From Candidatus Woesearchaeota archaeon (GTDB taxonomy: Archaea; Nanobdellota; Nanobdellia; Woesearchaeales; 0-14-0-80-44-23): 64,000 nucleotides of DNA. Each line of letters begins with the position of its first letter. Position 1 is the stretch's first letter. The stretch is from positions 448,001-512,000 of the forward strand of contig JAVZCZ010000001.1 in NCBI GenBank assembly GCA_038874135.1, read 5' to 3'. Made by a program: the position numbers and the translations under genes. Shown piece after piece: positions 38,440 to 53,093 of the stretch. The notes beneath the pieces are model-generated. The model did not search any database, was not told the DNA's origin, and saw only the letters and a program-made list of their open reading frames with translations.

Positions 38440-39159
38440 ATGACAGAGCTGATGTATCTCAAAGACTGCTACCTCAGAGAGTTTGAAGCAAGAGTCACTT
38501 TTATTCAAGGAAGAATTATTGAACTGGACCGGACGGCATTTTATCCTGAATCTGGCGGGCAGCCCTCCGACCGAGGCTTCCTAGAATTTAATGGAAAAAC
38601 CGCTGAAGTGGTTAATGTGCGAAAGGAAGGCGGCAGAGTGCTGCACGAGCTAGCTGCAGATGCTGAAGTTTTAGGCATCACTCTTGGCGGGGCAGTGAAG
38701 TGCATTGTTGACTGGAATAGAAGGTACCTATTCATGAGATACCATACTGCCTGCCACGTGCTCTCAGCAGTGATATGCAGAAATGAACAGGATGTTGAAA
38801 TCACGGGAAACCAGATTGGAGAGGAAAAAACCAGGATGGACTTCAGTCTGAAAAGCTTTGACAGGGAAAAACTTGCCAAATATGAAGAGGAAGCCAATGC
38901 TGAAATTCAGAAGGCTCTCCCCGTAAGAATTGAATTTTTAGAGAGGGAGGAAGCCTTTAAAATCCCGGGGCTGGTTAAGCTGAGAAAGCTGCTGCCAGAA
39001 TCTTTAAAAGTCATACGGATAGTTTCAATTGACGGCTTAGACCAGCAGGCTTGCGGCGGAACCCATGTGAAGAACACTTCTGAGATTGGAAAGATAAAAA
39101 TCATAGGAAGTGAGAACAAGGGAAAGGACAACAGGAGAATCTACTTCACCCTAAGCTGA
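38440..39159 (+). CDS. alaX: Free-standing alanyl-tRNA editing protein (AlaX-M type)
   Basis: TAFYPESGGQPSD, HTACH, ACGGTHV. Confidence 0.92.
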   Translation: MTELMYLKDCYLREFEARVTFIQGRIIELDRTAFYPESGGQPSDRGFLEFNGKTAEVVNVRKEGGRVLHELAADAEVLGITLGGAVKCIVDWNRRYLFMRYHTACHVLSAVICRNEQDVEITGNQIGEEKTRMDFSLKSFDREKLAKYEEEANAEIQKALPVRIEFLEREEAFKIPGLVKLRKLLPESLKVIRIVSIDGLDQQACGGTHVKNTSEIGKIKIIGSENKGKDNRRIYFTLS

Positions 39160-40697: not shown

Positions 40698-41933
40698 TCA
40701 TCTTAAGGATAAGATGAGGGAACGCACCTCTTCTCTGAGAATGCGCTCGTCATCCCTCCTGAGCTTAAGCTCAGCAGTAACAAATCCTGAATTCCCACCG
40801 CCCTTGCCAGAAAAGAGTGAGAATACTGTATTATTAAGAAATTCCAGTAGGTCTGAATCCAGATCTGAAGAGCGCATAAGGTAAATGTTCGCTTTCTCTT
40901 CACCCGTTCTGTTTATTAGCAAAACAAACGCCTGTTTTGAGCACAGGGCTGACATGCCTTTAACTATAACCTTCTGCTCCTCGCCCTCAAGAGTCTCAGA
41001 ATAGAAGCTTATGCCGAAAAGCCTCTCGGGAGTTATACTAGAAATCCTTCTCAGCAAATCCTGCTGGTGCCTCTCCTTCAACTCCCTATTCTCATTCCAA
41101 AGCTTAAGAGTGTCTTCAAATACAGAGTCACTCCTTCCTAAAAGCGCAGATATCCTTCTAAAATCCCTCGAATGCCTAAAAACCTCTCTAAAAGCATGCT
41201 CGGCAACTTTGAACTTTATCTCAAACTTTGAGCTTCCTAAACTTTTAAGAGAGGTTACCAGAACGAGCTTCAACTCAGAAGTATTCTCAACGTGGGTGCC
41301 CGTGCAGGCAGAAGCGTCAACCCCGACAATCTCAACCCTCCTAACAAATTCGTCCTTAATCCTGTCAGCCTTAATCCGCAAATCCGAATCAGAAAGAGCC
41401 TCCTGCGGTGCGAGGTAAGAAATCCTAAACGCCCGCCCCTCTTTTACTATAGAATTTGCAAGCTCCTCAGCCTCAAACATGAGATTCCAATTAAGAGAAG
41501 AAGCCCTAACAAAAAATGATGACTCCTCAGCACCTATTGAAACCTTATCAATTTCAACACTGAGAGAGTGTTCACCCATCACGCGTTTCAAACAGGCAAA
41601 TAGCAGATGCTCTCCAGAATGCATAAGCGTGTAAGCCCTCCTAAGCTGAGAATTCACCTCAAAAATAACCTTCTGCCCCTCAGAAATACTTCCCGAAAAC
41701 CTTGAACATCTGTGCATTATCAAACCGCCATCCTCAAAGGAGTCCTCAACCTCGGCATAAAAGCCATCTCCAGAGATTACTCCCCTATCAGAAGGCTGGC
41801 CTCCGGAAGCTGGCCTGAAAGGGCTCTTCTCAGCGCCTACTAATAAAAAGCTTCCCTCCCGCCTTACGGCCCTGACAGGCTCCGCTGATTTGAGAATTCC
41901 CGAATCGTAAAACTGGAATAGCTCCCGCCTCAT
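40698..41933 (-). CDS. Long AlaX-type editing protein with C-terminal DHHA1/C-Ala domain
   Basis: GGQPSD, HSGEH, ACTGTHV, C-terminal GKGGGN. Confidence 0.82.
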   Translation of the reverse strand: MRRELFQFYDSGILKSAEPVRAVRREGSFLLVGAEKSPFRPASGGQPSDRGVISGDGFYAEVEDSFEDGGLIMHRCSRFSGSISEGQKVIFEVNSQLRRAYTLMHSGEHLLFACLKRVMGEHSLSVEIDKVSIGAEESSFFVRASSLNWNLMFEAEELANSIVKEGRAFRISYLAPQEALSDSDLRIKADRIKDEFVRRVEIVGVDASACTGTHVENTSELKLVLVTSLKSLGSSKFEIKFKVAEHAFREVFRHSRDFRRISALLGRSDSVFEDTLKLWNENRELKERHQQDLLRRISSITPERLFGISFYSETLEGEEQKVIVKGMSALCSKQAFVLLINRTGEEKANIYLMRSSDLDSDLLEFLNNTVFSLFSGKGGGNSGFVTAELKLRRDDERILREEVRSLILSLR

Positions 41934-43424: not shown

Positions 43425-44069
43425 CTAAACCCCGCGCCTAGGACAGAGCCTTTTCAATATGCAGAGCTCGCACTTAGGCTTAAGAGCATTACACACCATC
43501 CTCCCGTGCGATATTAAAAGAAATGAAATGTTCCTCCACTCTCTCCTGGGAAGAAGCGTCATGAGATCCTGTTCTATAACCCTCGGATCACGACTTCTAG
43601 TAAAGCCAAGCCTGAATGAAAGCCTCCTAACATGAGTGTCAACAACTATGCCCTTAACAACTCCAAAGCCCTCAGAGAGCACAAGATTCGCAGTCTTCCT
43701 GGCAACACCTGGAAGGCTGAGAAGGTCATCCATACTAGCAGGAACCCTGGAATTAAACCTCTCCACTATAGCCCTAGAAGCCTCAACTATGCGCCTCGCC
43801 TTCAAGTGGTAAAAACCAGTGCTCCTAATAATCCCTTCTAGCTCCTTAACATCCGCCCTGGCAAAATCCTCAGGAGTTCTAAACCTCTTAAAGAGCACTG
43901 GCGTCACAGCATTAACCCTAGCGTCAGTACACTGCGCAGAAAGCATGGTAGCTATGAGAAGCTGAAAAGGGTTTGAAAACCTCAAAGCAGTTCCGGGAAT
44001 GCCATACTCCCGCTTGAGAATTCTCACAACCCTAATTGCACGATCCCTTTCAGAATGGTTCACACGCAT
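43425..44069 (-). CDS. nth: Endonuclease III
   Basis: LSAQCTD, LPGVARKTAN, VDTHV, C-x6-C-x2-C-x5-C cluster. Confidence 0.96.
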   Translation of the reverse strand: MRVNHSERDRAIRVVRILKREYGIPGTALRFSNPFQLLIATMLSAQCTDARVNAVTPVLFKRFRTPEDFARADVKELEGIIRSTGFYHLKARRIVEASRAIVERFNSRVPASMDDLLSLPGVARKTANLVLSEGFGVVKGIVVDTHVRRLSFRLGFTRSRDPRVIEQDLMTLLPRREWRNISFLLISHGRMVCNALKPKCELCILKRLCPRRGV

Positions 44070-44178
44070 AAGAAGACAAATGTTAAATCAAATTAAAAGC
44101 TTTACTCAAAATGCTAAAGCAAAACAAGTTTCAGCAAGATGTAAGCACAAAAATTCTTGCATATATCTTTAGAAAAAA

Positions 44179-44191
44179 ATTTCCACTGGAC
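44179..44191 (-). promoter_or_regulatory. ORB-like motif GTCCAGTGGAAAT in the nth-cas12a intergenic region
   Basis: Plus strand reads atttccactggac; matches the archaeal ORB core TCCAGTGGAAA; single copy and no cdc6 in the window. Confidence 0.35.
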
Positions 44192-44254
44192 TTGCGTTGT
44201 AGAAATATTTTTAAATGAAGAAAAAATTAAAGGAAATAGGGGGTGGGTTATATT

Positions 44255-47200
44255 ATGATTGAATCAAGAACTTCAATCTGGGATGAGTGCACTGGGCTTT
44301 ACAAATTAAAGAAGACCTTAAGATTCAGGCTGAAACCGATTGGCAAAACAGAAGAGTTCATAATAGAAAGGAAGATTATAGAAAATGACGAAGAACTTGC
44401 CAGAGATTCTGAAAGAGCTAAAAAAATAATAGATGAATATTATAGAAATTTCATAGCAGACAGGTTAAGAAATACAAAAATTAGCCTAGATAGTCTAAAA
44501 GAGTATGAAAAAAAGTATTTAGAGTTGAAAAAAGACAAAAAGAATAAAAACGCAACAAAAGAGTTCTCTACAATTCAAAAAAACCTCATTAAAGAAGTTC
44601 ACGATAAGTTCTTTGAAGGTACACAAAAAAATGAATTATTTGAAGACGACTTAATTAAAAATAGACTTCCCAATTGGTTAGAAAAAGAAAAAAGAGAAGA
44701 AGACAGAAAATTGATAGAAAAATTCAATAAGTTTGTTACATATTTTCATCCATTTTTTGAAAAAAGAAAAAATGTATTCTCAAATGAGGAGAAATCCACC
44801 TCGCTATTTTACAGAATTGTTGGTGAAAATTTACCAAGATATATTGATAACATAAAAAAGTATGAGAAGATAAGTCAATATTCAGATTTTGATTGCAGCA
44901 CACTAGAGAAAGAATTCTATCATGAATTAGGGGAAAAAAAATTAGATGAATTTTTCAAACTTGAAAACTTTAATGAGTTCCTAAGCCAGGAAGGAATAGA
45001 CAGATTCAACCTCGTAATAGGTGGTAAGTCGTTAGAAGGTAATAAAAAAATTCAGGGGCTCAACGAGCTGATTAACCTGTACTCCCAAAAACAGCCTGAA
45101 GACAAAAAACGGGAAATAAAAAAACTTTTAATGGTGCCACTATACAAGCAAATTCTAGGAGAAAAAAATACATTCTCTTTTGCTGAAGCAAAAATAGAAG
45201 ACGATGTAGAAGTAGTATCTACACTTCATGAGTTCTACACAGGAATCTCAAATGAGTTTGAAATAATAAAAAACATTTTTGAAAATATACTACAATACGA
45301 CGCTAGTGGGATCTATTTAAAAAAATCCTCTCTGAGTTACATATCTAAGGAGATATATAATGAGTGGGATCTTATTAATAGAGGATTAGATGCGTACGCA
45401 CAAAAAGACTTAAAAACTAAAAAAGAAAGAGACGCTTGGCTTAAAAAGACGTATTTTTCTCTAGAAGAAATTAAACAGTCATTAAGCTGCCTAGACGAAG
45501 AAGGTAAGTATTGGCAAACCTTTTTTGAGTACTACGCTGGAAAAAATAGCATTATAACGAAGCTTATAGATCAAGTAAAAGAAAAATACTCTCAGCTTAG
45601 CGAATTAAAACCGACTAAAAACGAGAAAGCACTCACAAAAGAAGAGAACTACAAAGATGTAGAAAAGATAAAGGAATTTTTAGATGTAGCTATGCAGCTG
45701 TATAAGATAATAAAACCGTTCAACTTAAGAAATAAAGAAGAAAGCTCACCATTGGAGATTAACGCAGAGTTCTACAACAAATTTGAAGAAGCATACGAAC
45801 CTTTTGAAAAAATCGTAGGAGTATATAACAGAATAAGAAATTATGTGACACAAAAACCTTTCAGCACTGATAAAATAAAAATAACATTCAAAAAATCAAA
45901 ATTATTAAACGGTTGGGATGTTAACAAAGTAAAAGATTGTCGGGGAATAATATTGGAGAAGGAAGGAAAATACTTCTTAGGTATTATTGAAGATACGGAA
46001 GAATTCGATAGGATAAAAAAGAAGGAAGAAGTAAAAGGACCAGCATATAAACTTGTGGAGTACAAATTAATTCCTGAACCTGCAAAAGAATTGGCACATG
46101 TGTTTTTTTCAGAAAAATACAAAAAAATGTATCCAATTCCTAAAGAGATAGAAGAAATAAGAAAGTATGCTAGTTACAGCAAAAATGCGAAGCTGCAAGA
46201 TGGTTATGAGAAGAAGGAATTCAAAATTGAGGACTGCCATAAGATGATAAACTTTTACAAAGAGGGTATAAAAAAACATCCGGAATGGAACAAGAAGTTT
46301 AATTTTAAATTCAAAGAAACATCTGAGTACAAAGATATTAAAGAATTTTTCCAAGATGTTCATAACCAGGCGTATGAAATAGAGTATGAATACATACCTG
46401 AATCTGAAATAAATCAAATGGTAAATGATGGCAAGCTGTACCTATTCCAGCTGTGGAACAAAGATTTTTCACCCTACTCAAAAGGTAGGAAGAACCTGCA
46501 CACGCTCTACTGGCAGGCATTATTCAGTGAAGAAAACCTAAAGGATGTAAAATTCAAGTTAGACGGAGGCGCAGAAATTTTTTTCAGAAATAAATCCATA
46601 GAAAATCCCACAATTCACCGAGCAGGGGGACCTATTGAAAACAAGAATCCAATTAGAGAAAAAGAAAGAAGCATATTCAAATATGACATCATAAAGGACA
46701 GGAGGTATACGGAAAACCAGTTCTTTTTACATTGCCCAATAACACTAAATTTCAAATTAGAAGAATTAAAAAGAAAAGATCTAAACAAAAATATCAACGA
46801 GATTATAGAGAAAAATCACTCAAAGGTTAACATTCTAAGCATTGACCGCGGTGAGAGAAACCTGCTGTATTACACACTGCTCTCACCTGAAGGGAGGATA
46901 ATAGAACAAAAATCATTAAACATTTTATACGATGATATTAATAGAAAACACTCATACTGGGATAAGCTTGATGAACTTGAACAAGAAAGGAAACGAGCAA
47001 GAGTAAACTGGAGCAAAATAAAGAATATAAAAGAGATGAAAGAGGGTTACCTATCAAAGGCAGTTCACGATATCTGCAAAATGGCTGTGGAGCATAATGC
47101 AGTGATAGTTTTAGAAGACTTAAACACCGAATTCAAGCGCGGAAGATCAAAGATAGAAAAACAGGTATACCAGAAGTTTGAAAAGATGCTAATTAATAAG

Positions 47201-47995
47201 TTAAACTACCTCGTATTCAAAGACAGGGAAGAAACGCAAAAAGGCGGACTGTTAAATGCATATCAGCTAACCAGCCAATTTACATCATTTGAGGAAATAG
47301 GAAAACAAACGGGAATAATATTCTATGTAGATGCGGGCTACACTTCAGCCATATGTCCCAAAACAGGATTTGTAAATATGCTCCACCCAAAGTACACAAA
47401 CATAAAAGCTGCACAGGACTTTTTCAAAAGATTTAAGTCAATAAGATACAACAGTAAAGAGAAATACTTTGAATTCACTTTCAAGTATGCAGACTTCTTA
47501 GAAAAAGACTCTAAAAATGAATACAACCAGAAAGAATGGACTGTTTGCAGCTTTGGAACGAGATTTGTAATAAAGAAGAAAAACAATTTGATAACTGGAG
47601 AAACTGAAGAGGTGCATGTAACGGAAAAACTCAAGGACCTATTCAAAAAGGAAGGAATCACATACGAGGATGAAAGAAACCTTGTTAAAGAGATAATTAA
47701 AAGCGAGAATAAGACATTCTTTGAAGAATTGATCTACCTGTTAAGATTAGTTCTGCAAATGAGAAACTTTGACAGTCAAAAAAATGAAGATTTTATATTG
47801 TCCTGCGTGAGAGATGCTTCGGGAAACTTCTTTGACTCTAGAAGAGCAGATAAGGATGAACCTCAAAATGCAGACGCAAACGGAGCATTACATATAGGAC
47901 TAAAAGGAATTCTGACAATCAAAAAGATCATTAAAGGAGAAAAACCTCATGTAGATAGGGAAGAGTATCTAGAATATGTGATAGCGAGGCACTGA
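44255..47995 (+). CDS. cas12a: Type V-A CRISPR effector Cas12a (Cpf1)
   Basis: LYKLKKTLRFRLKPIGKT, GLNELINLY, YNRIRNYVTQKPFS, GWDVNK, LYLFQLWNKDFS, NLHTLYW; RuvC SIDRGERNL / IVLEDLN / NADANGA; ATG 44255 preferred over GTG 44243. Confidence 0.97.
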   Translation: MIESRTSIWDECTGLYKLKKTLRFRLKPIGKTEEFIIERKIIENDEELARDSERAKKIIDEYYRNFIADRLRNTKISLDSLKEYEKKYLELKKDKKNKNATKEFSTIQKNLIKEVHDKFFEGTQKNELFEDDLIKNRLPNWLEKEKREEDRKLIEKFNKFVTYFHPFFEKRKNVFSNEEKSTSLFYRIVGENLPRYIDNIKKYEKISQYSDFDCSTLEKEFYHELGEKKLDEFFKLENFNEFLSQEGIDRFNLVIGGKSLEGNKKIQGLNELINLYSQKQPEDKKREIKKLLMVPLYKQILGEKNTFSFAEAKIEDDVEVVSTLHEFYTGISNEFEIIKNIFENILQYDASGIYLKKSSLSYISKEIYNEWDLINRGLDAYAQKDLKTKKERDAWLKKTYFSLEEIKQSLSCLDEEGKYWQTFFEYYAGKNSIITKLIDQVKEKYSQLSELKPTKNEKALTKEENYKDVEKIKEFLDVAMQLYKIIKPFNLRNKEESSPLEINAEFYNKFEEAYEPFEKIVGVYNRIRNYVTQKPFSTDKIKITFKKSKLLNGWDVNKVKDCRGIILEKEGKYFLGIIEDTEEFDRIKKKEEVKGPAYKLVEYKLIPEPAKELAHVFFSEKYKKMYPIPKEIEEIRKYASYSKNAKLQDGYEKKEFKIEDCHKMINFYKEGIKKHPEWNKKFNFKFKETSEYKDIKEFFQDVHNQAYEIEYEYIPESEINQMVNDGKLYLFQLWNKDFSPYSKGRKNLHTLYWQALFSEENLKDVKFKLDGGAEIFFRNKSIENPTIHRAGGPIENKNPIREKERSIFKYDIIKDRRYTENQFFLHCPITLNFKLEELKRKDLNKNINEIIEKNHSKVNILSIDRGERNLLYYTLLSPEGRIIEQKSLNILYDDINRKHSYWDKLDELEQERKRARVNWSKIKNIKEMKEGYLSKAVHDICKMAVEHNAVIVLEDLNTEFKRGRSKIEKQVYQKFEKMLINKLNYLVFKDREETQKGGLLNAYQLTSQFTSFEEIGKQTGIIFYVDAGYTSAICPKTGFVNMLHPKYTNIKAAQDFFKRFKSIRYNSKEKYFEFTFKYADFLEKDSKNEYNQKEWTVCSFGTRFVIKKKNNLITGETEEVHVTEKLKDLFKKEGITYEDERNLVKEIIKSENKTFFEELIYLLRLVLQMRNFDSQKNEDFILSCVRDASGNFFDSRRADKDEPQNADANGALHIGLKGILTIKKIIKGEKPHVDREEYLEYVIARH

Positions 47996-48000
47996 AAAAA

Positions 48001-48561
48001 TTGGAAGAAAATATAATCATATCAAACATAAACGACTTCATATTCTGTCCGAGAAGCATCTACTTTCACAATCTTTACAGCAATTATGATGAACACCTAT
48101 ATCATGAAAACCCGCAAGTGGAAGGAAGAATAGTTCACAATAGCATTGACAAAAAACAATACAGCACAAGGCGAGACGTTCTTCAAGGAGTTGAAGTTTA
48201 CAGCGAATCTTTGGGAGTGATAGGTAAAATAGACTTATTTGACAAAAAAGAAGGAGTTCTAACAGAGCGTAAGAAGAGAATAAGCAGGATTTACGAAGGC
48301 TATCTTCTCCAGATGTATGCACAGTACTTCTGCTTAACTGAAATGGGATTTGCAGTCAAAAAAATACGACTGTACTCAGTAATGGACAACAAGACATACG
48401 AGGTAAAAATTCCTGGAGATGAAGACCTACATAAGCTTATGGAATTGCTGAAAAGAATGAGAAGTTTCAGGCTGGAAGACAAATCTTTTTCTCAAAACTT
48501 AAAAAAATGTGAAAAATGCATATATCGCAATATGTGCGATTACTACGCAGATGATGAGTAA
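48001..48561 (+). CDS. cas4: Cas4 (type V-A)
   Basis: INDFIFCPRSIYFH, GKIDLF, ERK, QMYAQYFCL, C-x2-C-x5-C. Confidence 0.95.
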   Translation: MEENIIISNINDFIFCPRSIYFHNLYSNYDEHLYHENPQVEGRIVHNSIDKKQYSTRRDVLQGVEVYSESLGVIGKIDLFDKKEGVLTERKKRISRIYEGYLLQMYAQYFCLTEMGFAVKKIRLYSVMDNKTYEVKIPGDEDLHKLMELLKRMRSFRLEDKSFSQNLKKCEKCIYRNMCDYYADDE

Positions 48562-49525
48562 ACCCGACTTTATGGAAAAGCAGGTTCTGTTTTTAGAGAG
48601 TAGTGAAGCTAAAAAAATATCATTCAAAAATTCAAATCTTCAAGTTACAGATGAAAATGGAAGGATAATACTTCAAAACTCCTGCCACAAAATATTTTTA
48701 GTCTTTATCCGGGGAGAGTTCACTATAACTTCTGTGCTTCTTAAGAATGCAAAGAGGTTTGGATTTCCACTAGTTTTTCTGACTTACTCTCTAAGACCAT
48801 ATCTGGTTTACAATGCAGGCACTGAAGGTAACTTCCTTCTAAGAAGAGTGCAATATTCGTGCAACAGAAGTTTTGAAATTGCAAAACACATAGTCTACAA
48901 TAAAGTATTAAATCAAGTTCAACTGATGAAATCGCTGAGATATAAAACAAAAGAAGAAAAAAAGGCAATAGAGATTATTGAAAAATTGTTAACATCTATA
49001 AAAACAGCTAATGACGAACAAGAACTCCTGGGCATTGAAGGAGAATCCTCAAAGCTATTCTTCAGAACATACTTCAAAAACATTAACTTCAGCGGCAGAA
49101 AACCTCGGATAAAACCGGACATATACAACTGCCTATTAGACATAGGATACACCTACCTGTTTCAATTCATTGAAGCAAACCTGAGCCTATACGGATTTGA
49201 CCTATACTGCGGAGTATATCACAAGCAGTTCTATCAGCGAAAATCATTAGTGTGCGACATCATAGAGCCTTTCAGGTGCGTCATAGAAAAGAGAATTCGC
49301 ACAAGTTGCAATCTGAAACAAATTGATGAAAAAGATTTTGTAAGTATACAGGGAAGATACGAGCTAAAAAAAGAAGCAACACAAAAATACAGTGAAATAC
49401 TACTAAGAGCAATTCTAGAATACAAACAGGACATCTTCCTTTATGTAAGATCATACTACCGCGCATTCATAAAACAGAAGGAAATAGAGGCGTACCCAAT
49501 ATTTAGGATAGGTGAGGATAGATGA
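48551..49525 (+). CDS. cas1: Cas1 (type V-A)
   Basis: LLGIEG, LLDIGYTYLF, GVYH, SLVCDIIEPFR; start set at MMSKPDF (48551). Confidence 0.95.
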   Translation: MMSKPDFMEKQVLFLESSEAKKISFKNSNLQVTDENGRIILQNSCHKIFLVFIRGEFTITSVLLKNAKRFGFPLVFLTYSLRPYLVYNAGTEGNFLLRRVQYSCNRSFEIAKHIVYNKVLNQVQLMKSLRYKTKEEKKAIEIIEKLLTSIKTANDEQELLGIEGESSKLFFRTYFKNINFSGRKPRIKPDIYNCLLDIGYTYLFQFIEANLSLYGFDLYCGVYHKQFYQRKSLVCDIIEPFRCVIEKRIRTSCNLKQIDEKDFVSIQGRYELKKEATQKYSEILLRAILEYKQDIFLYVRSYYRAFIKQKEIEAYPIFRIGEDR

Positions 49526-49794
49526 TGATACTAGCATATGACATAAGAGAAGATGATTTGAGAAACAGGTTCAACAAATTTATCAGGCAGTATGGAAGAA
49601 GACTCCAGTTCTCAGTTTATGAAATAAGCAACAGCGAAAGGATACTAAGCATAGTTAAACTTGAGATAAGGGAAAGCTTTGAAAAAGAATTCCAGCAAAG
49701 CGACAGCGTACTAATATTTGAAGTGAATAATCCTGAAAAAGTAATAAGATTTGGATATGCAAAAAACGAGGAAGATGATCTGGTCTTCGGATAA
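49522..49794 (+). CDS. cas2: Cas2
   Basis: ILAYDI, YGRRLQFSVYEI. Confidence 0.95.
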   Translation: MMILAYDIREDDLRNRFNKFIRQYGRRLQFSVYEISNSERILSIVKLEIRESFEKEFQQSDSVLIFEVNNPEKVIRFGYAKNEEDDLVFG

Positions 49795-50003
49795 AAAATG
49801 CAAACCTCAGTCTGAATGCAAAATTATAAAAAAAGAGTTTCTCTTCACAAAAAAGAGCAAGCTTTTTAAATAACAAAGTCACAACATCCTTTCGTTTCCT
49901 ATGCAAAAGAGATGTGTCGTAGAGTAACTTCTACGCCGAAAACCGCAAATTTTGTCGTATATCAACCCCCTAAAATTCATATTCCTACCCCTAAGTGGGA
50001 CCT
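49795..50003 (+). promoter_or_regulatory. CRISPR leader
   Basis: Non-coding, A/C-rich stretch between cas2 and repeat 1; TATA-like tttttaaa near 49863; the degenerate repeat is at the far end of the array. Confidence 0.8.
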
Positions 50004-50493
50004 GTCTAATAATTCGTAATAATTTCTACTGTTGTAGATTCTCAGTTTTCTCAGAATTATTTTCAACGTCGTCTAATAATTCGTAATAATTTCTACTGTT
50101 GTAGATTTTTTCAAAAAAAGTCTTTAATTTTGTAATTTGTCTAATAATTCGTAATAATTTCTACTGTTGTAGATCTCATAATATTTTTTTAGCCCAGCAT
50201 GTCTAATAATTCGTAATAATTTCTACTGTTGTAGATCGAAATCACTCTAATTGAGCCGAACGATGGTCTAATAATTCGTAATAATTTCTACTGTTGTAGA
50301 TGGCTATGTTTATAAATTCAAATCCTTCGTCTAATAATTCGTAATAATTTCTACTGTTGTAGATGTTTGCTTGTTCTAATATTTTTTTTGTTGTCTAATA
50401 ATTCGTAATAATTTCTACTGTTGTAGATACAAGGTATGATTCTACAGAATAAGTTTGGTCTAATAATTCGTAATAATTTCTACTGTTGTAGCT
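50004..50493 (+). CRISPR. Type V-A array, 8 repeats / 7 spacers; repeat GTCTAATAATTCGTAATAATTTCTACTGTTGTAGAT (36 nt)
   Basis: Repeats start at 50004, 50071, 50139, 50201, 50266, 50329, 50393 and 50458 (last ends GTAGCT); spacers 31, 32, 26, 29, 27, 28, 29 nt; canonical Cas12a handle AATTTCTACTGTTGTAGAT. Confidence 0.98.
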
Positions 50494-50585
50494 TATTTTT
50501 CAATATTTTAGCCAATAATTGGAGTAGGTCTACTTTGCGGATTAGATTCAAAACCTTTATATTCCCCTTTTTTATTCTCCAAGTT

Positions 50586-53093
50586 ATGCTTTCGGATAAG
50601 GAGGTTAAAAGGGAGTTGAGAAGGGCTGCTTCTATGGAGCCTGAGAAGTATTATGCAGTTGATTTTCTGAAGGGTCAGGGCTTTTCTCGGCATCAGTGTT
50701 CCAGGTGTGGGAAGTTCTTTTGGAGTGTTGAGGATTCTGATGTCTGCGGAGATCCTGCCTGTTCGGGAGGTTTCAGGTTTATCGGGGATACTCCTGCCAA
50801 GAGGAGGTTGAGCTATGTTGAGGTCTGGGCTGAGTTTTCCAGGTTCTTTTCTGAGAGGGGGTATTCTCCTATTAAGAGGTATCCTGTGGCTGCTAGGTGG
50901 CGCGACGATACTGACTTCGTGCAGGCTTCCATTTATGACTTTCAGCCTTTCGTGGTTTCCGGCGAGGTTGAGCCTCCTGCCAACCCGCTTGTTGTTCCGC
51001 AGTTCTGCCTCCGCTTTAATGATGTGGATAATGTTGGCATAACTGGTGCTCACTATACAGGTTTTGTGATGATTGGCCAGCATGCTTTTACAAGTCCTGA
51101 GGGTTTTGATCAGGAGAGGTATTTTAGGGACATTTTTGAGTGGCTCACGCTCGGGCTTGGAATTCCTAAGGCTGAGTTGAAGTTTCACGAGGACGCTTGG
51201 GCTGGAGGCGGTAATGCCGGTCCCTGTATGGAGTACTTCTGCCGAGGGCTTGAGCTTGGCAATCAGGTTTACATGCGGTATCAGGTTACTGAGGGTGGTC
51301 TTAAGCCTTTGAGGCTTAATGTTCTTGACATGGGTATGGGGCATGAGAGGAATGCCTGGTTTACTAATGCTACGAGCACTAGTTATGAGGCTGTTTTTCC
51401 TGAGGTTATGAAGTATCTTTATGATAGGACCGGCTTTCGTACTGATCAGGCTCTTATGCGGAGGTTCCTACCGTATGCTTCATATCTTAATGCTGATGAG
51501 GTTGAGGATATTGAGGCGGTTTGGGCTGATATTGCAGATAAGCTCGGAGTTTCTAAGGATGAGTTGAAGAATAAGATCTCCAGGTCTGCTGCTCTGTATT
51601 CTATTGCTGAGCACGCGAGGAGTTTGCTATTTGCAATCTCTGACGGGGTTCTCCCCAGTAATGTTGCCGGCGGCTACAATCTTAGGATGCTTCTCAGGCG
51701 GGCTTTATCCCTTATTGAGAGGTACGGCTGGGATGTCTCCCTTGCTGAGGTTTGCAGGATTCATGCTGAGGAGCTTAAGCCTTTGTTCCCGGAGCTTTCG
51801 GAAGGGTTAGATGGTGTGGAGAAGATTCTGAATTATGAAAGGGAGAAGTATCTTGAGAGCAGGAGGAATGCTAAGCGCATTGTGGAAGGCTTGGCTTCTA
51901 AGAGGATTACTGCTGAGCTTCTCGTTCAGCTTTACGACAGTCACGGCATAAGTCCGGATTTTGTCAGGCAGGAGCTCGGAGCTAGGGGCATTAGTGTGGA
52001 CGTTCCTGAAAATTTTTACTCACTACTTTCAGAGAGGCACTCCGTGGGCGTTCAGAAAACTTCAACTAAGAAGGGCGTGCCTCTCGACCTGTCAGGGCTG
52101 CCGCAGACTGAGGCTTTATACTTTGGAGATTACACTCTAACTAAGTTCTCAGCAAGGGTGCTTAGGATTATTGATGGAAGGTATGTCGTGCTGGACAGGA
52201 CTGCTTTTTATCCCACATCTGGAGGGCAGCTGCACGATACCGGCACGCTGGGGAGTTCAAAAGTGTTGGAATGCTTTAAGGATGGGGGTATAATAGTGCA
52301 CCTTGTAGATTCTCCAAGATTTAGGGAAGGCGAATTGGTTGAAGGCGTTGTGGACTTTGAGAGGAGGCTTCAGCTGGCTCAGCATCATACATCTGCTCAC
52401 ATTGTAAATGCTGCTGCCAGGATCGTGCTTGGAAGGCACGTCTGGCAGGCTGGCGCTTCTAAGAGTTTGGAGCACGCTCGTCTGGACATAACCCATTACA
52501 AGCTGCTGGAAAGGCAGGAAGTTGCCAGGATTGAGGAGGAAGCTAACAGGATTGTGCAGGCTGATATTCCGGTGAGGAAGTTTTTCCTTCCAAGGGCTGA
52601 GGCTGAGCGGCGTTACGGATTCTCAATCTATCAGGGCGGCGCTGTTCCCGGCAGGGAGCTGAGGATTGTTGAGATTCCAGGTGTGGATGTGGAAGCGTGC
52701 GGGGGCACGCATCTTAACAGAACTGGAGAGGTTCGCAGCATAAGGATTCTGAGAACTTCAAAGGTTCAGGACGGCATAATAAGAATTGAGTTCGTTTCAG
52801 GAAGGGCTGCTGAAGTGCTCTCTTCTGAGGAGAACAGGATTATAAGTGAGCTCTCAGAAATTCTGAACTGCGAGAGGGAGCAGATTCCCGGAAGGGTTGG
52901 TGAGCTGTTTGACTGGTGGAAGAGGATTGTCAAGAAGGGTGAGGACAAGTTAAAGTTTAAGCTTTCTTCAGAGGAGAGGCTTAAAGCTTCTAATGCTCAG
53001 ATAATCTCGGCTGCTGCTGAGCGTTTGAAAACTCAGCCTGAGCACCTGGTGAAAACGGTTAAGAGGTTCTTAGAAGAGATTAAAAAATCTTAA
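50586..53093 (+). CDS. alaS: Alanyl-tRNA synthetase, archaeal type, apparently without the C-Ala/DHHA1 domain
   Basis: YPVAARWRDD, QASIYDFQP, WAGGGNAGP, GLELGNQVYM, editing HHTSAH/CGGTH; likely start ATG 50586 (835 aa). Confidence 0.95.
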   Translation: MLSDKEVKRELRRAASMEPEKYYAVDFLKGQGFSRHQCSRCGKFFWSVEDSDVCGDPACSGGFRFIGDTPAKRRLSYVEVWAEFSRFFSERGYSPIKRYPVAARWRDDTDFVQASIYDFQPFVVSGEVEPPANPLVVPQFCLRFNDVDNVGITGAHYTGFVMIGQHAFTSPEGFDQERYFRDIFEWLTLGLGIPKAELKFHEDAWAGGGNAGPCMEYFCRGLELGNQVYMRYQVTEGGLKPLRLNVLDMGMGHERNAWFTNATSTSYEAVFPEVMKYLYDRTGFRTDQALMRRFLPYASYLNADEVEDIEAVWADIADKLGVSKDELKNKISRSAALYSIAEHARSLLFAISDGVLPSNVAGGYNLRMLLRRALSLIERYGWDVSLAEVCRIHAEELKPLFPELSEGLDGVEKILNYEREKYLESRRNAKRIVEGLASKRITAELLVQLYDSHGISPDFVRQELGARGISVDVPENFYSLLSERHSVGVQKTSTKKGVPLDLSGLPQTEALYFGDYTLTKFSARVLRIIDGRYVVLDRTAFYPTSGGQLHDTGTLGSSKVLECFKDGGIIVHLVDSPRFREGELVEGVVDFERRLQLAQHHTSAHIVNAAARIVLGRHVWQAGASKSLEHARLDITHYKLLERQEVARIEEEANRIVQADIPVRKFFLPRAEAERRYGFSIYQGGAVPGRELRIVEIPGVDVEACGGTHLNRTGEVRSIRILRTSKVQDGIIRIEFVSGRAAEVLSSEENRIISELSEILNCEREQIPGRVGELFDWWKRIVKKGEDKLKFKLSSEERLKASNAQIISAAAERLKTQPEHLVKTVKRFLEEIKKS

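Follow-up and report, generated by a model that had tools for sequence, protein, structure and literature searches.

The locus described here raises the question of whether a class 2 CRISPR-Cas system built on cas12a serves as working immunity in a reduced archaeal genome, and how it came to lie between two core genes. It is located in a 64,000-nucleotide stretch (hereafter, the window; G000:C1:448001-512000) of a 909,956-bp host genome, which is assembled in one contig and is 99.4% complete. We conclude with high confidence that the window carries a canonical and intact type V-A system that was horizontally transferred into a Woesearchaeota-type DPANN genome, most likely from another DPANN archaeon of low guanine plus cytosine (GC) content, and that occupies a variable slot for defence genes, bordered on its two sides by the divergent promoters of nth and alaS. 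The original prediction, a note made from the window sequence alone, had described the host as DPANN-like. This is correct: the genome is smaller than 1 Mb, and Candidatus Woesearchaeota or Nanoarchaeota is the annotation of the closest named relatives of its alaS (58-62% identity), so that the host is a Woesearchaeota-type DPANN archaeon with a reduced genome. One CRISPR array and one cas1 were found in the host genome.

Gene content and conserved residues of the locus

The features of the locus and of the core genes that border it are listed below, with window coordinates, strand and the evidence for each (aa, amino acids; Fn, Francisella novicida).

43425-44069, minus strand: nth (endonuclease III), core gene left of the insertion site; TIGR01083, 236 bits; adjoins the slot in all relatives
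44080-44102, no strand: nth-proximal promoter block, left edge of the insertion; 20 of 23 positions match the intergenic region of the L041 empty site
44103-50546, plus strand: low-GC island of about 6.4 kb with the cas12a upstream region, four cas genes, leader, array and a 53-bp trailer; bounded by both promoter blocks; GC content; identical across assemblies
44177-44206, no strand: handle-like inverted repeat abutting the cas12a TATA-like box; read from the sequence
44208-44216, plus strand: TATA-like box TTTTTAAAT upstream of cas12a, with a putative promoter role; read from the sequence
44255-47995, plus strand: cas12a, 1246 aa; family profiles and alignment to Fn
48001-48561, plus strand: cas4, type V flavour; TIGR04328, 233 bits (cut-off 70)
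48551-49525, plus strand: cas1, type V flavour; TIGR04329, 389 bits (cut-off 300)
49522-49794, plus strand: cas2; PF09827, TIGR01573
49795-50003, plus strand: leader, 209 bp; identical in all assemblies; ends with ACCT before the first repeat
50004-50493, plus strand: CRISPR array, 8 repeats and 7 spacers; repeat reading and hairpin fold
50547-50578, plus strand: alaS promoter block, right edge of the insertion; kept in L041, L042, L025 and G335 directly downstream of the cargo of each lineage
50586-53093, plus strand: alaS (archaeal alanine-tRNA ligase), core gene right of the site; TIGR03683, 842 bits

As the original prediction had proposed, the type V-A locus is complete. cas12a, cas4, cas1, cas2, the leader and the array were all found, the four genes scored far above the curated cut-offs, and genes and array are co-oriented between nth (minus strand) and alaS (plus strand). 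The adaptation module, cas4-cas1-cas2, is of type V flavour, as judged by the TIGR04328, TIGR04329 and TIGR01573 matches. The higher A/T content that had been noticed in these genes was also evident, with GC values of 0.30-0.36 in the locus vs 0.45-0.50 in the flanking genes. The open reading frame (ORF) of cas12a spans 1250 aa from a GTG at 44243; its likely start is the ATG at 44255, which comes after a ribosome-binding-like GGGGGTG motif and is also the start in public gene calls. For cas1, public gene calls place the start at 48551 or 48572 and the ORF opens at 48509. A longer alaS ORF from 50436, which overlaps the array, was rejected because the TIGR03683 match begins at its residue 71 and the alignments of the relatives begin with residue 1 of an 835-aa form.

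The Cas12a protein matched the TIGR04330 equivalog with 1187 bits (cut-off 300) over residues 15-1248, as well as the Pfam families PF18501, PF21918, PF22222, PF18516 and PF18510 (REC1, REC2, PI, RuvC and NUC). Its residues, numbered from the ATG at 44255, were paired with those of FnCas12a (PDB 5MGA, native numbering) through a HMMER alignment, and conservation was counted in an alignment of 131 Cas12a homologues. The ribonuclease (RNase) residues H788/K797/K814, which act on the precursor of the CRISPR RNA (pre-crRNA; motifs IHRAG, ENKNP and IIKDRRY), pair with Fn H843/K852/K869. The RuvC residues D864/E954/D1207 (motifs SIDRGE, VLEDLN and NADANGA) pair with Fn D917/E1006/D1255, and Nuc R1170 (motif LQMRN) pairs with Fn R1218. 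Every RuvC acidic motif and H/K/K equivalent noticed beforehand was found among these pairs. All seven catalytic columns are invariant or nearly so across the 131 homologues, those of RuvC and Nuc being invariant, and the residues are present in the window Cas12a. Among 5.8 billion database proteins, the nearest Cas12a was 47% identical, while the nearest solved relative, ReChb, was 44% identical; ReChb and FnCas12a are the best solved relatives. These values fit the expectation of a new orthologue and rule out near-identity to a characterised Cas12a, and the locus contributes a divergent orthologue to a known system and not a new principle. The locus of the nearest relative, P0024, carries an extra 440-aa gene between cas12a and cas4 (L048:4274-5596) that is devoid of Pfam matches.

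The 36-nt repeats of the array start at 50004, 50071, 50139, 50201, 50266, 50329, 50393 and 50458. Seven of them are identical, as originally counted, and the count had missed a degenerate eighth, terminal repeat (50458-50493), in which GAT is changed to GCT. The seven spacers between them are 26-32 nt long. The repeat is equal to the published FnCas12a repeat (PMC5716609) at 31 of 36 positions and identical to it over the last 22 nt, as the original prediction had stated. Therefore, the mature handle should equal the widely used Cas12a scaffold. The 19 nt at the 3′ end of the repeat constitute the Cas12a handle, with its UCUAC-loop-GUAGA stem-loop, and the predicted fold of the repeat was the expected 5-bp hairpin (-4.8 kcal/mol). 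A second copy of the 9-mer TTTTTAAAT was found inside the leader, at 49863-49871, and the two copies are candidate TATA boxes of archaeal type, from which the cas operon and the pre-crRNA would be transcribed.

Homology to known systems suggests how the locus would operate. The array would be transcribed from the leader and the WED RNase site of Cas12a (H788/K797/K814) would cut its own pre-crRNA, leaving a 5′ handle of 19-20 nt, the same as in FnCas12a, so that no trans-activating crRNA should be needed. On double-stranded DNA, the crRNA-Cas12a complex would then recognise a 5′ protospacer-adjacent motif (PAM) and make the staggered cut in both strands that characterises type V-A, using the single RuvC site (D864/E954/D1207) with the aid of Nuc R1170. 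Finally, Cas4-Cas1-Cas2 would insert new spacers at the leader end.

The repeat-like element upstream of cas12a (44177-44206) differs from the crRNA handle by one substitution and an 8-nt loop insertion, and its minus strand folds into a hairpin (-8.6 kcal/mol) followed by a U run. CreR-type mini-CRISPRs, which autoregulate cas12a, consist of a handle-giving repeat-like element and then a spacer-like stretch that is partly complementary to a PAM-flanked site of the cas12a promoter (bioRxiv 10.1101/2023.03.10.532045). A CreR reading of the window element was rejected for now, because it has no PAM-flanked partial target and the pattern is expected by chance, with about four occurrences of a loose handle-like pattern expected in the genome. 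The best candidate target matched at 10 of 20 positions (the first 10) and was located inside the cas12a coding region, without a T-rich PAM.

Insertion slot, origin and natural strains

Relatives were found via alaS and nth, and the synteny of these genes, which the original prediction had proposed to check, revealed both an empty site and different cargoes. In L041, whose alaS is 71% identical, the site is empty and the divergent neighbours nth and alaS are 102 bp apart. The promoter blocks at 44080-44102 and 50547-50578 are separated by 28 bp in this empty site and by 6.4 kb in the window. The slot contains one MNT/HEPN pair in L042, and MNT/HEPN, two unknown genes, a Dam methylase and a transglutaminase-core gene in L025. 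In G117, which belongs to the same family as the host, it holds 1.1 kb of small ORFs. The congener G335 carries two MNT/HEPN pairs, a PD-(D/E)XK gene and a Dam methylase beside nth and, directly upstream of alaS and on the opposite strand, a V-F2 locus (L023:162-3815, contig C33) in which a Cas12f2 effector (619 aa; NF049972, 712 bits) is accompanied by cas4, cas2 and cas1. Contig C33 ends just past cas12f2, probably at its array. The insertion slot was thereby mapped to within a few bases, and its cargo can be nothing, toxin-antitoxin/methylase genes, V-F2 or V-A. No integrase or transposase was found in the island, and cargo exchange would proceed by homologous recombination through the conserved core flanks.

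The GC content of the island is 33.4%, compared to a genome mean of 40.8% (standard deviation, SD, of 3.2% in same-size windows), and 4.5% of the windows are as low. A Cas12a family model was scanned over 401 sampled genomes of the phylum, a sample that includes the unpublished G359. Cas12a scored above the cut-off in 11 of them (about 3%, the host genome counted); G359 was sub-threshold only and was not used for any claim. The family model found no Cas12a in the congener (93% complete) or in the family member (98% complete). Ten in-phylum cas12a loci have GC contents of 23-38%. In archaea, class 2 systems form a minority (PMC12669027), as the original prediction held. V-A systems recur in this phylum and are annotated in DPANN database records, and the case is less unusual than had been thought.

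In a FastTree phylogeny of 126 Cas12a homologues, the window protein was placed on a long branch (0.79 changes per site) as sister to two unlabelled metagenomic proteins, within a 38-row clade whose local support is 99%. Seven members of this clade can be identified, and every one is DPANN (five of the same phylum as the host, one Woesearchaeota and one Ca. ainarchaeum record); another member sits beside Orc1/Cdc6 on a contig of 939 kb. Together with the 47% identity of the nearest protein, this is the outcome, for Cas12a, of the BLAST and phylogeny that had been suggested as a check. The most economical reading is that the donor would be another low-GC DPANN archaeon. Altogether, the proposed horizontal acquisition is supported by the empty site, by the other cargoes at the same point, by the low GC and by the lack of Cas12a in the congener and family member searched.

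An identical 1246-aa Cas12a turned up on nine contigs in exact look-ups, and five of these loci, from assemblies of the host species, were read. Over 44070-50003 (5,934 bp), there were 0 differences among the five loci and the window, while the flanks differed in four of the five. Specifically, L029 presented 6 differences from the window in 2,704 bp of the left flank and 46 in 12,600 bp of the right one; at this rate, our own arithmetic gives about 20 expected differences in the island, with the proviso that the flanks are not uniform. Because L029 was found through alaS, this comparison is free of the bias of an identity look-up.

The arrays, in turn, varied in size: the window has 7 spacers, L029 has 19, and L038 and L039 have 17, with 35 unique spacers overall. 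The window and L037 have spacers 1-7 in common. L029, L038 and L039 share three trailer-end spacers, an inner block of four, one displaced spacer and an extra mutation in the terminal repeat, and at their leader ends 11 or 4 spacers are unique. Since the trailer-end spacers are shared and the leader-end ones are new, spacer acquisition is active, and this polarised acquisition is ongoing in natural strains. The claim that the system is probably active is borne out by the population data as far as acquisition is concerned; for interference, the support consists of the intact catalytic residues. These strains offer a rare natural-population view of a class 2 system that gains spacers in a DPANN archaeon with a reduced genome. 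The displaced spacer (number 19) stands before the four-spacer block in one of the three strains and after it in the other two, which implies array rearrangement or recombination between arrays. Two spacer pairs overlap on opposite strands, by 15 and 18 nt, pointing to repeated sampling of the same invaders. When the 35 spacers were compared by BLAST with the host genome and with every locus fetched, only chance matches of at most 17 nt resulted, and no self-targeting spacers were found in the host genome.

Weighing the alternatives

The sharp GC contrast at both edges could also result from an assembly or binning chimera that joined the island to the genome from another organism. However, the 910-kb single-contig genome shows the same junctions as at least four other assemblies, which are set apart by single nucleotide polymorphisms of the flanks and by array content, and the conserved promoter blocks continue across both edges. 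The possibility of chimeric junctions, already considered in the original prediction, was thus not borne out, and we regard it as negligible. An island inherited vertically from the family ancestor and lost in the relatives would agree with the occurrence, in other genomes of the order, of V-A systems that have this layout and handle, and losses of CRISPR loci are common. This explanation is nonetheless quite unlikely when set against the GC of the island, 7 points below that of the genome, and against the same point being empty or filled with unrelated cargo in five other lineages, the congener included. Moreover, the island lacks diversity while its flanks vary, and Cas12a is 39-43% identical to the fetched in-order relatives and at most 47-50% to any homologue, compared to 58-71% for alaS. 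Horizontal transfer is the reading that we retain. As regards function, the locus could be a decaying or repurposed relic (e.g., binding-only or regulatory) instead of working immunity, as the short array of seven spacers in the window, the replaced PAM lysine and the repeat-like element on the cas12a promoter might indicate. In contrast, all nuclease and RNase residues are intact, the four genes are full length, the repeats are identical and the leader-end spacers differ between natural strains, which makes a relic very improbable.

Four observations count against a canonical, intact and DPANN-derived system. The first lies in the PAM helix, where the window Cas12a reads KELAH and FnCas12a KMLPK (LAH for LPK): the PAM-inserting lysine of Fn, Lb and AsCas12a (Fn K671) is replaced by His615 and the preceding Fn P670 by Ala614 (window 46094-46099). 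Only 3 of the 131 homologues have His at the Fn K671 position and 1 of 131 has Ala at that of Fn P670. Fn K671 contacts PAM bases and a K671R change alters PAM preference (PMC8484740); no report of a Lys-to-His change at this Cas12a position was found in the searched literature. With these substitutions, PAM recognition may be non-canonical. Type V-A effectors read a T-rich 5′ PAM (TTTV or TTN) through WED and PI lysines, of which the WED lysine (Fn K613), Fn K667 and Fn K677 are kept here, the residues of this region being K611, A614, H615 and K621 in the helix and K558 in WED. In addition, exact-pattern scans of IMG/VR and JGI metagenome contigs with PAM-proximal spacer parts and two composite targets found no protospacer. 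The two array lineages share no spacer despite their identical cas genes, which is not fully explained; trailer deletions or array replacement are possible causes. Finally, a taxonomic label is lacking for 31 of the 38 clade members and, because of this, the donor lineage can only be inferred.

Enzyme properties, host genome and known systems

The composition of Cas12a leans towards heat. Lys and Glu make up 26% of the protein (rank 5 of the 131 homologues), in line with the original description as Lys/Glu-rich, and the fraction of residues I, V, Y, W, R, E and L (IVYWREL) is 0.430, the highest of the 131 (mean 0.383, SD 0.014). The host proteome has an IVYWREL of 0.415, which gives about 54 °C in the Zeldovich regression, and the 16S GC is 54%. 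No reverse gyrase above the cut-off was found in the host genome, for which reason hyperthermophily of the host was rejected. These data would point to moderate thermophily at most, and the suggested thermotolerance has only compositional hints in its favour. We tentatively put forward a joint proposal, possible though rather doubtful as a whole, in which Cas12a would be a natural altered-PAM variant adapted to moderate heat that uses a standard Fn/Lb-type crRNA handle and, separately, the nth-alaS gap would be a fixed slot where recombination through the core flanks lets the genus swap defence cassettes, whole type V systems (V-A vs V-F2) among them. Its standard crRNA handle, unusual PAM helix and heat-leaning composition make the enzyme a candidate tool.

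Elsewhere in the host genome, stretches with a GC of at most 34% are found at about 266-304 kb, 720-726 kb and 844-853 kb of G000:C1, and they may be further foreign islands. A candidate second CRISPR array from a k-mer screen (G000:C1:293155-293540) was discarded, as it consists of six perfect 63-bp tandem copies (21 codons). A replication origin at the island was also discarded, since the extremes of the cumulative GC skew, a minimum at about 93 kb and a maximum at about 602 kb of the genome, do not fall at 492 kb; the local GC-skew switch at the island tracks gene orientation. AlaRS-type domains occur in three genes within 15 kb (38440-39159, 40698-41933 and alaS, 50586-53093). The two shorter genes are AlaX-like paralogues, and the trio is kept in relatives.

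When compared to known systems, the window locus resembles the V-A system of Francisella novicida (FnCas12a/Cpf1; PDB 5NG6 and 5MGA) in its gene order, cas12a-cas4-cas1-cas2-array, its 36-nt repeat and its catalytic, RNase and Nuc residues, with a full-length alignment of 935 bits. It differs in that the host is a DPANN archaeon and in that Cas12a is richer in Lys and Glu, carries the His and Ala described above in the PAM helix, and is divergent to the point that the synthetic ancestor ReChb outscores Fn. The V-A loci of Woesearchaeales and other DPANN (G363, G272, G239 and G051; records of Ca. Woesearchaeota, Ca. ainarchaeum and Diapherotrites) share its layout, 3′ handle, ACCT leader end and low GC, and their Cas4, Cas1 and Cas2 are 53-76% identical. 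The arrangement of the genes is also shared with four relatives of the same order, which have an identical 19-nt handle and arrays of up to 60 or more repeats. In contrast, the window Cas12a is 39-47% identical to theirs and sits on a long branch, and these relatives mostly keep LPK/LPR in the PAM helix. Candidatus Methanoplasma termitum belongs to the Methanomassiliicoccales, in another archaeal phylum than the host. Its CMtCpf1, one of the functional orthologues covered in PMC6507119, is a precedent for a working archaeal V-A effector. The V-F2 locus of G335 (Cas12f2/Cas14-like) lies in this slot, immediately upstream of the alaS promoter block, together with a cas4-cas2-cas1 set of its own; unlike in the window, its effector is miniature and on the opposite strand, and its Cas1 is 30% identical to that of the window. 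Altogether, the system itself is a textbook type V-A, of which similar loci are already annotated in DPANN genomes, and what this locus adds is a mapped slot with alternative type V cargo, population evidence of spacer acquisition, and two enzyme leads, the PAM helix and the composition.

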